Source: Nitrospinales bacterium (GTDB lineage: Bacteria > Nitrospinota > Nitrospinia > Nitrospinales > VA-1). Taken from it: DNA of 64,000 bases. Where the stretch lies: the NCBI GenBank assembly GCA_965262115.1, contig OZ253496.1, positions 192,001 to 256,000 of the forward strand, written 5' to 3'. A program made the position numbers and the translations under genes. This document shows, piece after piece, positions 4,146-14,336 of this stretch (the first letter of the stretch is position 1; each line of letters opens with the position of its first letter). The notes under the pieces are model-generated. The model had not been told where the DNA came from. It ran no database searches and saw nothing but the letters and a program-made list of their open reading frames with translations.

Positions 4146-4421
4146 TTATCGGCCCTGTTTGTTCATGAATTCATCAAAGTGTTTCTGATACATGATGTCC
4201 CATTCTGGTGATCCTTCACGAGGCCCCTTGCTATAAGTGTTTAATATTCGGCGGGATTCTGCATCGGCCTTATCATCAAGTTGGAGAATGTCAGTCATCA
4301 CCCGGGTAATTTCCAGACGGATGTCATTGAGTTCGACTTTGTAATCCAGTTCATCACGTTTGGCAAAATCGCGGACGATGAGACTGCTGATATGGTTGAT
4401 TTTTTCTCGGCTGATTTTCAT
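4146..4421 (-). CDS. DUF507 family protein
   Basis: MKISREKINHIS...EGSPEWDIMYQK; paralogous to the neighbouring gene. Confidence 0.75.
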   Translation of the reverse strand: MKISREKINHISSLIVRDFAKRDELDYKVELNDIRLEITRVMTDILQLDDKADAESRRILNTYSKGPREGSPEWDIMYQKHFDEFMNKQGR

Positions 4422-4433
4422 AATTTACGGGGT

Positions 4434-4715
4434 TTAAAGAATAAGCCCTCGTTCACGCACTAATTTTGATTTCACCATCTGGAACACTCGCCCGTAATCC
4501 ATAATACTTCTTTCATACTCTTCGGTTTTGGAATCAAGCAAAGTTTTTACTTCTTCGTTGAGCCGGTCTTCAACCATGAGGTCTTCAGTAATAATATCAT
4601 TGATGACGGATTGCAGTTTTTCAGGTGGTTCCTCCCAGACAATCAAATCCTTATCCATCAAGGATTTGACAATTTTTTTGGCGAGAAGTTCGGTAAGGTC
4701 TTTAGGAATACGCAT
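4434..4715 (-). CDS. DUF507 family protein
   Basis: EDRLNEEVK...DYGRVFQMVKSKLVRERGLIL. Confidence 0.8.
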   Translation of the reverse strand: MRIPKDLTELLAKKIVKSLMDKDLIVWEEPPEKLQSVINDIITEDLMVEDRLNEEVKTLLDSKTEEYERSIMDYGRVFQMVKSKLVRERGLIL

Positions 4716-4828: not shown

Positions 4829-5017
4829 TCAGTCAGAGCTTTTTTCACCCAGAATCAAAAAACAGTTTGTATCGGTCACCTGTATGTCTATGATTGGAAT
4901 TTTCTGCTGGTGCATCTCCTGAATGAGCTTATTAACCATGCTATCTATCGCCGCAGCGCCTTCTTCGGCAATATCGAGGACTCTGATACCTGTGACTATT
5001 TGGTTGTTAAGGGACAT
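4829..5017 (-). CDS. Small hypothetical protein
   Basis: 62-aa protein-like ORF ending 7 bp before tRNA-Gly on the same strand. Confidence 0.5.
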   Translation of the reverse strand: MSLNNQIVTGIRVLDIAEEGAAAIDSMVNKLIQEMHQQKIPIIDIQVTDTNCFLILGEKSSD

Positions 5018-5472
5018 TCAATTAAAAGCCGACCCGGCTACCCGCCTGTCCATAGACCATTACCCCTTGAATTTAAAGGGGAAACAAGTTTTACGGTGTG
5101 ACCAAATTTTCAGGCATTATCCACTATTTACCTCTTGTAATCAATACTAATTGGAGAATCCGCCTAAAAACAGGAGTACTTCTGTAGTTCATACAACATT
5201 TTACGGGGCGGATTCGACTGGGAATGTCGCTCTTTATTCAGTGAAGGCCCAAGTTGATCTAGGGGGTTATGTTTTTAATATGACGCACTATCGGCGCGAG
5301 GCACTTAATTGCATCGAGCAAGGAAATGACATAACTTGCGACTTTAAACCACGTTTAAATTAGCTTTTTCTTGTCGATCAAAATTTGATGAGCGTCGGGT
5401 TATAATATTTCCGCAAAAACTGAGCTCCTCATAAGGACTTTTTAAGAATGACCTAGCGGCTAAAATTATTTG

Positions 5473-5502
5473 AATGTCCGCTTCCGACCCAAAGCGGACA
5501 TT
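5473..5502. repeat. 30-bp hairpin site, left boundary of the PHP-ATPase cassette
   Basis: AATGTCCGCTT-ccgaccca-AAGCGGACATT (perfect 11-bp IR); related copy at 8017-8046. Confidence 0.8.
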
Positions 5503-5536
5503 AGTTCTGTATTAGATAATGGAGATTGTGAGGTAT

Positions 5537-7681
5537 ATGAAAATAGATATTCATGTACATACAAAAAAAACGAAGCAAGGTGATGCTGCGACACGAGAAA
5601 TTGAGGCGAAAAGATTTCACAGAATCATCTCATCTACTGAAGTAAAGATAGTCGCGATTACCAATCATAATGTTTTCGATTCGGCTCAATATAAAGAGTT
5701 CGTCGAGGCCGTAGGCAACGATTTTCAAATATGGCCAGGTGTAGAGCTTGATGTCCTTGAGGATGGCCGTAAAGGCCATCTAATAGTGGTGGTATCGCCA
5801 GAACATGCAAACCAATTAGAAGAGACTATCGTAAAAGTTTCCAAAGATAAAAGTCCTGACAATTTCAATATTTCTATCAGTAAAGTTATATCTAATTTTT
5901 ACAAGCTAAACCCACTTTATATCGCTCACTATCAACAGAAAAAACCCCATTTGTCAGACGAAGATATTGAGCAAATTATTACAAGCACATCGAACAAAAA
6001 TAGAATGCTAAAGGAAGCAACCAATGCAGTTTCTGCCGGAATTTTTATTAGTCATGGTCACGCTTCCATTTATGGTTCTGATCTGCAAGATTGGGAGAAA
6101 TATCAATCAAATTCGGAAAATCTTCCTGATCTCAGGTTGCCAGTTGAGAGCTTTGAGCAATTTTGTTTGCTGCTTGATAAAGATCAGAAGGCCATTGACA
6201 CTCTTTTGGACAAAAAATCCCACGAAAAAATTCTTATAGAACCTTTTAAGGATGATCCGCCGCTAGAGCTGATTGTTTATGACGATATCAATATATTTTT
6301 TGGAGCAAAAGGAACAGGAAAATCAGAAATATTAACTGCTATAGGAAATTATTATTCTAACAAAGGAATAGCATGCAGGAAGTTTGAGGCTGGGTCTGAT
6401 ACGTTGGAAGAAATATATGATTTTAGCGGAAAGAATTTAAAGCTTGACCTAAATGATTACGATATTAATTATTGTCTCAAAGAAATTGAATTAATCAAGA
6501 ATGCCCAAGAGGTAAGCATAACTAGTTTATCAAAATACATAAATTTTCATAAAGGAAGTCTAACCAATAAAAAGGCAAAAAAAATAAAGATTAAGGATTT
6601 TTCGAAGGTGGATACCAAGAATTCCGAGAGACAATTTAAAAAGATACAAATTTCTGATAGGAAAGTAAAAGAATTTAAGGAATTCATAGTACAAAATACT
6701 GTTATTAAAGAAATCCTAACCGAAGAAAAAATCGGTACTCTAATCGCGATATTGACGGAAGCCATTCAAGGACTTGAAGAAAAAAGTTTTGAAGAATTCT
6801 CGAATGAAAAAACAGCTCATCTTTTTAATGGAATTATTGAAAAATTTAAAATGGAGGTTTCTATAAAAACCGGAACCCCTACCAAACCTAGTGAAACTGG
6901 ATTCCGTAAATACGCCGAAAACCGAATAAATATCGAAATGGCAGCAAAAACCATAACGGACAATATCAATAAAAAAATTGAGCCCACTAAAGAGTATGTA
7001 GGAAACCTAGATGAAAAAGGTGATCTATGCTGCAAAACCGAGATCGTGATCCAGAATGGTAAAATTAGTGATAGTAAATTTAAAACAATTAACAAATCAA
7101 TTAAAAAAAATCCGCAAAAAGACTTCTCAAAGAAAATTGCAAACATCAGAGGCAAGGTGTATACCCACGACCTTTTCGAGGAAATTTCGGAGCTGAATCA
7201 ATTAGAGGACATAGACAAAATCCCAACCATTCTTGAGCTTTTAATTTTCAATAAAATTTTTACAATTAAAGATAGTGAGTACAAGCCATCAACAGGAAAG
7301 GCTTCAATGATATTGCTTCATAAAGAGCTAAGTGAAGAGAAGGATGTGTATATTTTAGATGAGCCTGAAAAAAGCTTGGGCAATGAATATATCAACAACG
7401 TAATTGTTCCCCTAATTAAAGAAAAAGCAAAAATCGGGAAAAAATTATTTATTGCGACACACGATGCCAACATTGCAGTTAGAACCTTACCATACAACTC
7501 GGTTTATCGGCACCATAGTCAAAAGGGATATGAGACATATGTAGGCAATCCATTTTCCAATAATCTTGTGTATATCAAGGGATCGCAGGAAAATTTGGAT
7601 TGAAAAAATATAAGCATGAGGACATTAGAGGGTGGAATAGAAGCTTTTGGAGAAAGGGACCAAATATATGGTAACCCATGA
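5537..7681 (+). CDS. PHP-domain phosphoesterase fused to an ABC/SMC-type ATPase (Ppl/TrlF-like, putative anti-phage); in-frame TGA at 7601-7603
   Basis: PHP motifs DIHVHT, ITNHN, PGVEL, GSD; Walker A GAKGTGKS, Walker B ILDEPE, H-loop IATHDAN. The frame continues past TGA as KNISMRTLEGGIEAFGERDQIYGNP*. Confidence 0.85.
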
Positions 7682-7973
7682 AGCAGAGATAATCGAAGTT
7701 GAAAAGGAGTATTTGCTTGCTTTAAAAATGCCGGATAATACGCTCAAAATAGCTATTACCCAGGATGTGCCCAATGATGTTAAAAAGGTTTTTAATGAGC
7801 TGATCGTATCCCTTAAAAATGGAGTTTTTAAATTTGCATTAAAAGAGGTAAAGGATAAAGATATTTTTTATCATGTTGCAGAGGAATATATTTCCCAATT
7901 AAACTCGGAGCTGGATGTAATTTATAAGGAAATGGAAGAATATAATTTGTTAGGCCCAGATAATAATGAGTAA
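7668..7973 (+). CDS. Small acidic hypothetical protein, partner of the PHP-ATPase
   Basis: ATG at 7668 overlaps the full-length ATPase 3' end; same AT-rich composition. Confidence 0.7.
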   Translation: MVTHEAEIIEVEKEYLLALKMPDNTLKIAITQDVPNDVKKVFNELIVSLKNGVFKFALKEVKDKDIFYHVAEEYISQLNSELDVIYKEMEEYNLLGPDNNE

Positions 7974-8016
7974 AGCGGATGCGGATTCATATTGCTATAA
8001 AAAATACTAGAGAGAG

Positions 8017-8046
8017 AATGTCCGCTTATGGCCGAAAGCCGACATT
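8017..8046. repeat. 30-bp hairpin site, right boundary of the PHP-ATPase cassette
   Basis: AATGTCCGCTT-atggccga-AAGCCGACATT; same length and orientation as 5473-5502. Confidence 0.8.
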
Positions 8047-8389
8047 GATCCCTCCTTTAATGGCTAGACAGAGTAATACCGGGTTACATCCTTATGTCAC
8101 AGAATTGACGCATTTCCGGGATATGGGGTTTTGCATCTGAGGTGTCTTTTTTTTGCAAATGAGCTGCGCGGTTACACAATGAAGGATAACATCCCATAAA
8201 ATTGACACGCCAAGTTGCGATTTTGGGATTTTTGTTTGCGAAAGGTTATTGAAATTATTCTACCAATTGAGTAAGATGGCAAATTAAAATAACTCATGAA
8301 AACACAAAAAGTTGCGGGAACGTGGCGATTTTCCAGGTTCCCACTTTTTGTTTGGATTTGGGCTCAAAAACGCTCCAACGAGGGAATTT

Positions 8390-13480: not shown

Positions 13481-13962
13481 GAGACCTTTGCATAAGAGGG
13501 TATTGCGGTAATTTTCATTAAACGGTGTTGAAGTTGAGAGTGAAACGCTATTGTTTGAGTAATGTTCTTTGACGCATATGGTTTTTATTGCTATTCGCTT
13601 TGCCGTTTTCCGTGTTCCCCAGGTGCTTTCCTCTCTCAAGCCAGAGTTTCCCGTGTTGGCGCTAAAACAAGACGCCGTTTCATATTCATGGCCATGCAAA
13701 CCAGGGTGATTTGAACCGCTGTCCGCGTCAACCCGATATAGCGTGCCCTGCGCAACCGGTAATGGTTCTTGAGGATACCGAAGACATGTTCTACGGGAGC
13801 GCGTAATTTAGTCATCCGTTTGTTGAATGCGGTCTGAGCAGGTTTCAGGGGATGATACTGATTGGGCCGATGCATAATGCCAACAAAAATACCGCGTTCC
13901 TGAAGTTCCTTGCGCCGGGAGTGTTTGCCATAAGCCTTGTCTGCATACACTGCTTTCTCGTT
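13481..13962 (-). mobile_element. IS5-family (IS1106-like) remnant: transposase C-terminus plus one TIR
   Basis: EKAVYADKAY...RAPVEHVFGILKNHYRLRRARYIGL (DDE C-terminus); TIR GAGACCTTTGCATAA at 13481; 5' part missing. Confidence 0.88.
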
Positions 13963-13997
13963 AGAAATCGAAAAATCCCACTGTTGAATAGTTCAAG

Positions 13998-14336
13998 TCA
14001 CACGTGCAACGCGGCTACTTCTCGGGTAGATTTTCTTGGGCGAGGGCGGACTTTAACTTTCACGTCCACTTGTTGATCGAATTTGTTCAGAATAGAAATA
14101 AGACGATCTGCCGTAAAGCGTCCTAACTTAACATTGCGAATGCGGGAAAATTCGCTTGCCTTCACCCCTGTTTGTTCTTCGGCCTTGCGCACAGAGAATT
14201 TCTTTTTATCGAGAATGTCAATGATCCTGGCGGCGAGAATGCATTTCAATTGCTCGGTGTCGGCATTGGGGTCTCCAAAATCCCGAAAGACATTGCCACT
14301 ACCATGTACTATTTCTATTTTTTCATCCTTCTTCAT
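13998..14336 (-). CDS. XRE/HTH antitoxin (HigA-like)
   Basis: GSGNVFRDFG, HTH, FTADRLISIL; ATGA overlap with the upstream toxin stop. Confidence 0.85.
   Translation of the reverse strand: MKKDEKIEIVHGSGNVFRDFGDPNADTEQLKCILAARIIDILDKKKFSVRKAEEQTGVKASEFSRIRNVKLGRFTADRLISILNKFDQQVDVKVKVRPRPRKSTREVAALHV

Follow-up and report, generated by a model that had tools for sequence, protein, structure and literature searches.

We analysed a stretch of DNA of 64,000 nucleotides (hereafter the window; the insert described below and its parts lie on the forward strand) and found in it two 30-bp palindromes which, in the reading that we hold to be the probable one, are double-stranded recombination sites, termed L and R, of a PHP-ATPase cassette that occupies the right-end cargo slot of a decayed Mu-like prophage. 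Their 11-8-11 layout resembles that of lox or dif core sites. The L site (5473-5502) is made of an 11-bp arm, an 8-bp L spacer (5484-5491) and an 11-bp cargo-side arm, and the R site (8017-8046) of a cargo-side arm, an 8-bp R spacer (8028-8035) and a backbone-side arm. The cargo between them is AT-rich (34.1% GC vs 44.8% for the window), the L site lying 34 bp 5' of the ATPase ATG at 5537 and the R site 43 bp 3' of the stop of a small ORF at 7973. An earlier note on this DNA had claimed that matching palindromes bracket a two-gene AT-rich block and that the window holds no further copy; the positions and both spacings proved exact, and a search of the whole window with up to three mismatches gave no third copy. 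The palindrome had no match in 100 dinucleotide shuffles of the window.

The two sites are not equivalent as hairpins. Compared with shuffled sequences, site 1 (L), which forms a perfect 11-bp stem with a weak terminator-like score, folded clearly better (z about -4), and site 2 (R) gave no clear gain (z -1.1 and -2.2). No sigma-70 promoter match was obtained between 5150 and 5600, and the sole match above threshold in an Rfam scan was a tRNA, the sites belonging to no Rfam family. The loops had been described earlier as different from one another. They do differ, but they are not free to vary: among relatives the 8-bp loops form two conserved, family-wide spacer classes, L being YYGACCCA and R being TTGGCMSA, and in the window the L-class spacer stands before the cargo and the R-class spacer after it.

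The sites belong to a widespread family. The L half-site was present in 65/120 genomes of the phylum, with only scattered single matches in the controls; the backbone-side arm of L is degenerate and was kept outside the search pattern. The exact site pattern was recovered at no fewer than 132 loci in Alpha-, Beta- and Gammaproteobacteria and a few other phyla, the sequence being near-constant across phyla, and some genomes contain dozens of dispersed copies. Among the fetched loci, a co-oriented ORF was located 3' of 51 of the 71 L sites (within 250 bp in 45 cases) and 5' of 32 of the 41 R sites (within 150 bp in 25). The genome from which the window comes (G000) has six sites in two foreign clusters, namely the window pair and four sites near 1.940-1.943 Mb. 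The second cluster (L251, G000:C1:1,939,840-1,943,125) reads L, AriAB-like ATPase, R, GNAT-like gene (a label given by eye), R, Rieske-like gene, R. Its ATPase, of 527 aa, corresponds to a PARIS AriAB fusion (PADLOC E 9e-64), and the same slot carries other cargo in G013 and G019. Of 12 site-bounded genes scanned from loci other than the window's, this AriAB fusion included, 5 matched PADLOC models. The motif had been expected to mark off unrelated ORFs and indeed does so, at the edges of unrelated foreign genes, in arrays and at homology breakpoints. Among the IMG/VR loci, L146-L154 (including L149, L151 and L154) are small 'viral' contigs with terminase-like genes and site triplets, and two IMG/VR viral contigs carry a FimB-like recombinase of 200 aa near the sites.

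Palindromes that lie between genes may also be ordinary terminators, REP-like repeats or binding sites for a regulator, and both the weakly terminator-like character of site 1 and the intergenic position of nearly all sites would fit such a role. We find this explanation hardly credible in view of the small number of copies in the genome, confined to two foreign clusters, of the exact coincidence of the sites with breakpoints, and of the recurrence across phyla of one sequence that has no Rfam family. A REP/BIME system with its RAYT was considered separately and rejected: PF01797 (Y1 HUH) was not found in G000, a 94% complete genome with six copies of the site only.

Comparison of related loci showed that homology is gained or lost at the sites. 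When the backbone is the same and the cargo differs, homology between the window and G019:C18 starts at 8016 (95% identity), and that between G012 and G014 restarts at the first base of R. When the cargo is the same and the backbone differs, the copy in G015 shows 90% identity starting where the L spacer ends (5490), R being lost, and a copy about 95% identical in a marine metagenome (run X5) aligns from 5485 up to 8040, although its left contig begins only 12 bases before 5485. Moreover, in 5/13 aligned right ends, all that is present of R is its outer arm preceded by the last bases of the spacer. Because identity switches at or inside the sites, we infer that the crossover takes place in or next to the spacer and that the cargo-side arms move with the cargo. 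At the locus of the second cluster, G013 has the outer arm and spacer of L joined to the R-type downstream flank, making this junction a candidate for the empty hybrid site that LxR excision would leave. Counting against the model, G015 and the loci L157 and L158 carry the cargo but lack either R alone or both sites. Assembled contigs showed no recombination product; run X1 yielded two low-depth joints of which only the short sides are known, and which may come from other organisms.

The cassette lies within a larger insert (5184-8176, 2,993 bp) that is absent from relatives, as judged by blastn against 20 orthologous loci. The closest empty relatives align to 5183 and resume at 8177, the empty allele having 2-3 extra bases, and no target-site duplication was detected when the insert was compared with the empty allele. 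The earlier note had implied that relatives would have, between the ORF at 4829 and tatC, an empty site marked by a single hairpin. This prediction failed: all 20 orthologous tRNA-Gly/tatC loci (20/20) lack the whole of 5184-8176 and have no hairpin there, which argues that the block arrived as the end of a Mu-like prophage and not through recombination at the hairpins.

Two segments of the insert connect it to such a carrier. The right end (8047-8176), which finishes with ...GGTTACA, aligned over 88 bp at 84% identity with its counterpart in a G020 prophage; it was matched in 12/70 family genomes (the window's own included), and the flanks that follow ...TTACA are unrelated. The second segment (5411-5451) is a conserved backbone element before the cargo hotspot, which shares 81-84% identity with the DNA found 5' of the cargo in both the G020 prophage and a G019 remnant; in the former it lies upstream of the right-hand slot. 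The G020 prophage is about 40 kb long, with TG..CA ends and a 5-bp duplication, it possesses transposase, MuB, Gam, terminase, portal and head genes, and it contains two slots of L/R-bounded genes. As both the right end and the 5411-5451 element are common to this prophage and the window, the latter appears to hold the right arm of a Mu-like prophage, of which the insert would be a remnant, the left part having presumably been lost by deletion. The window copy has neither a left end, nor a duplication, nor any phage gene, and a search of G000 for the transposase, MuB and left end of the G020 prophage gave no match. Around six other right ends, matching duplications were found at chance level only.

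Several features of these ends and of the surrounding DNA were recorded in passing. In the left 230 bp of the insert (5184-5410), positions 5343-5410 resemble the sub-terminal part of a related right end in G007, and the insert starts with TGTAG like the left end of the G020 prophage, then diverges at once. At the locus L238:2660-2740 (G020:C119), four bases separate a right end that has an L-bounded gene from another Mu-like prophage, which starts there with its left end. Mu-like right ends were located just upstream of a flgB-like gene (a label given by eye), at slightly different positions, in L233, L237 and L247 (G049, G011 and G003), which suggests a preferred target. Elsewhere in the window, a transposase DDE fragment and an HTH_37 gene follow an nrdR-like gene (13636-14336), in an interval that varies among relatives, and DUF507 is split (4146-4715) into two adjacent genes that correspond to the two halves of the Pfam model; in most of the relatives that match, the first half is a separate frame of about 93 aa.

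The first cargo gene (5537-7603) encodes a fusion of a PHP phosphoesterase and an ABC-type ATPase, which is PDC-M49A-like (PADLOC, E 4e-28) and TrlF-like, the latter NCBIfam match being below the cut-off. What it shares with PDC-M49A is the N-terminal PHP domain fused to the ATPase; it departs from that system by its moderate score, by a 101-aa partner and, in the window copy, by a premature stop. We take this class of PHP-ATPase to be a Ppl-type defence candidate, and the pair is predicted from HMM similarity to be anti-phage. The partner gene (7668-7973) gave no match in Pfam, PADLOC, NCBIfam or PHROG. It is also found directly 3' of the ATPase gene in L157, L158 and G015, and the association looks obligate. 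In the window, a conserved tryptophan codon has become TGA (7601-7603), which shortens the protein by 26 residues, the tail staying in frame to 7681; the same letters were read in contigs of runs X1, X3 and X4, of which X1 and X3 possibly derive from the source sample. Given this premature stop and the conservation of the lost tail, whose LEGG motif is kept in 114/115 full-length homologues, the window copy of the ATPase is probably impaired.

Sites of this family also form arrays. On a contig of a Dyella japonica isolate, 17/17 solo L sites are co-oriented and 398-2734 bp apart, with mostly one small ORF between sites and a GC content below that of the flank. The contig G090:C3 displays 68 typed sites over 74 kb (8,700-82,800) that share a single orientation; 35 are of the R class, 32 of the L class and one of a third, 'middle' spacer class (CGGGGGTA-like), which occurs between R and L. 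A GC jump at 84 kb indicates that this MAG contig may be chimeric; its array cargo includes repeated transporter-like genes. The length of the R-L junctions is fixed, at 45 or 91 bp, in 64/96 cases. In arrays of the alphaproteobacterial type and in phage P2, the cargo is found in either orientation, and this counts against the model.

Single-gene arrays of co-oriented sites have an integron-like look which, together with the perfect stem of site 1, would suit an integron-like or HUH-type processing in which the enzyme would read single-stranded DNA, folded either as each hairpin or as an R-L junction; moreover, exchange of one strand followed by replication would tolerate differing spacers. 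This was the mode of recognition put forward in the earlier note, and we now judge it quite unlikely. There are no canonical attC boxes (RYYYAAC/GTTRRRY) near either window site, a point on which the note was right, and a search of G000 for a Y1 HUH gene gave no match, so that the HUH-type enzyme which the note had named as an option finds no support. In addition, neither of the two fused R/L junctions (0/2) folds into one clean long stem, the backbone-side, outer arms are often degenerate, the spacer is conserved, and the outer bases of paired sites do not covary in 96 junctions and 100 cargo intervals. The R'/R'' logic of integrons, taken as covariation or complementarity of the outer bases, was likewise rejected, as it appeared nowhere in the same set. 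The absence of covariation counts against the integron logic and adds nothing in favour of the double-stranded-site model.

The enzyme associated with the sites is a tyrosine recombinase of about 205 aa whose catalytic R-K-H-R-H-Y residues are invariant in 9/9 sequences. On a metagenome contig, a homologue of the ATPase (70% identical) is divergent from a gene for a tyrosine recombinase of 214 aa, and an L site separates the two. Foldseek comparison of the predicted model (pLDDT 71.6) retrieved XerA, XerH and Cre (E 1e-6 to 1e-4), and the score with TIGR02249 (IntI) was 17.8 bits for a cut-off of 265. The protein is devoid of the usual N-terminal core-binding domain, profile matches starting at residue ~43, and this counts against a model in which it reads the arms. 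The family is present on 364 plasmids, and none of the tyrosine recombinase subgroups compared from PMC8138268 fits a catalytic-domain-only enzyme.

We then asked how the recombinase gene is placed relative to the sites. A full-site weight matrix caught only 5/22 recombinase loci, because these loci carry half-sites. With half-site matrices trained on non-recombinase loci and a threshold of at least 10 bits, a reverse-complement R half-site was detected downstream of the gene in 11/36 loci vs 19/1380 control windows, and an L half-site upstream in 6/30 vs 17/1380 controls, several of the positive loci being close kin; the score was sub-threshold (<10 bits) in 25/36 loci downstream and 24/30 upstream. 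The best matches clustered at +27 to +46 in 20/36 loci and at -73 to -94 in 13/30, in bands that were chosen after the data had been seen. The arms that face the gene are, by eye, element-specific inverted repeats, and the recombinase gene therefore sits in the R-L junction, where its sense is opposite to that of the phylum's cargo genes. The half-site enrichment ties the sites to the small recombinase, in agreement with the proposal that a tyrosine recombinase encoded elsewhere acts on them. This recombinase was not found in G000; it occurs in 2/70 family genomes and 8/250 genomes of another class, though the sites are common. Of the four PF00589 matches in G000, two are Xer-like genes; the others are a fragment and a degenerate frame. 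A tyrosine-recombinase-like frame of 277 aa, with degenerate catalytic residues and an early stop, was noticed at G000:C1:2,164,564-2,165,397.

The frequent presence of sites where the small recombinase was not found could mean that a host enzyme, XerC/XerD or another resident recombinase, acts on them in a pdif-like manner, the small recombinase being only a frequent cargo. Both Xer-like genes of G000 are full-length, and a recombinase gene carried as cargo would be flanked by sites in the same way. We consider this very unlikely, for the arms are unlike XerC/XerD arms and the spacer is 8 bp long instead of 6 (by eye, against Table 1 of PMC13141974), the sequence is near-constant across phyla, and the recombinase gene lies in the junction, in the opposite sense to the cargo, facing arms that are specific to each element.

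The position of this gene raises another possibility, namely that the mobile unit is the junction itself. A tiny IS/MITE-like element of the form R-(middle site or recombinase gene)-L would then insert into palindromic targets, and the 'cassettes' would be the stretches between insertions. The fixed junction lengths of 45 and 91 bp, the dozens of dispersed copies in some genomes, and the flanking of the recombinase gene by hybrid sites that carry the gene's own inner arms would fit such an element. It is nonetheless an unlikely account, as in the window, the G020 prophage and P2 each of L and R stands alone at its own end of the cargo and is followed outwards by phage backbone, as the cargo-side arm moves with the cargo in G015, and as the Dyella array has one site per gene.

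We therefore return to the model of L and R as double-stranded sites. In this scenario, the ~205-aa recombinase, supplied in trans, would bind the arms and cross over in the spacer, the cargo carrying both cargo-side arms and the backbone retaining the outer arms. With the former travelling and the latter staying in place, L and R would behave like attL and attR. Phages, plasmids and chromosomes would thus be likely to exchange cassettes with no integron involved. Since the L and R spacers differ, replacement of the cargo would most likely take one crossover between L sites and one between R sites (LxL and RxR), along the cointegrate route of pdif modules, and rarer LxR events would give a single hybrid site. 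As for the carrier, the prophage end would have reached the tRNA-Gly/tatC interval by Mu-type transposition, the left part being deleted afterwards. The window copy is probably an immobile relic by now, since neither the recombinase nor a Mu transposase was found in G000 and the ATPase is truncated.

The same site core is already annotated in P2. In this phage and in 3/3 annotated records of its Z-region, a 24-bp core, GTCYGCTY-N8-RAGCRGAC, occupies the cargo-facing edge of both repeats; in AJ512677, AJ512683 and AJ512685 this core coincides exactly with the end of the left repeat and with the start of the right one. The inverted repeats of the P2 Z/fun region were reportedly treated by Nilsson, Karlsson and Haggard-Ljungquist in 2004, with no enzyme named. 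The left spacer is R-type, a class shared with our system, and the cargo is likewise AT-rich and swappable; however, the right spacer is of a third type, the outer sequence of the ~90-110-bp repeat is P2 backbone, and the carrier here is a Mu-like prophage of another phylum. The P2 Z-region is presented in PMC13748975 as a hotspot of accessory gene cassettes.

Other known systems offer partial parallels. The pdif (dif) modules of Acinetobacter plasmids also have short two-arm sites at their edges, and single modules are replaced via a cointegrate when left spacers match left and right match right, according to PMC13141974. However, pdif sites are 11-6-11, with distinct XerC/XerD arms and a host enzyme, whereas the sites described here are near-palindromes of 11-8-11 layout, their spacers fall into two fixed classes, and the associated recombinase is small and separate. 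Integrons likewise form arrays of single foreign genes, often defence-like, with co-oriented sites, and these arrays persist without the enzyme; in contrast, the present sites are 30 bp long, occur as L/R pairs or solo, and come with no R boxes, no IntI and no R'/R''-type covariation. With Mu-like phages, the window has in common a right end homologous to that of a transposable prophage with TG..CA ends, the difference being that the accessory slots described here are bounded by recombination-type sites.

A literature search by title and start of abstract, with subscription papers and bioRxiv supplements outside its reach, gave no description of the sites together with their enzyme, and the matches listed for the motif string were apparently unrelated primers. 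This non-integron site-specific system is probably undescribed, as the earlier note had suggested, in so far as the association of site and enzyme is concerned; the claim does not extend to the site core, which ends the annotated repeats of the P2 Z-region. Whether it amounts to a third natural system of gene cassettes, next to integrons and pdif modules, is, in our opinion, evenly balanced. Such a system, present in several phyla, would rely on a catalytic-domain-only tyrosine recombinase and on 30-bp sites with two fixed, non-matching spacers; it would be a natural form of recombinase-mediated cassette exchange, with arrays tens of kilobases long, stocking the defence hotspots of unrelated temperate phages (the P2 Z-region and the Mu-like right end).

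The rapid swapping of defence genes in prophage hotspots is given as an open question, for cos-adjacent hotspots, in the discussion of PMC9122126. For the P2 Z-region and the Mu-like slots, the sites, the region of the crossover and a candidate enzyme can now be named. The sites can also serve to locate new defence genes in sequence data, and the ~205-aa recombinase, with its built-in non-matching sites, could be a compact tool for genome engineering.
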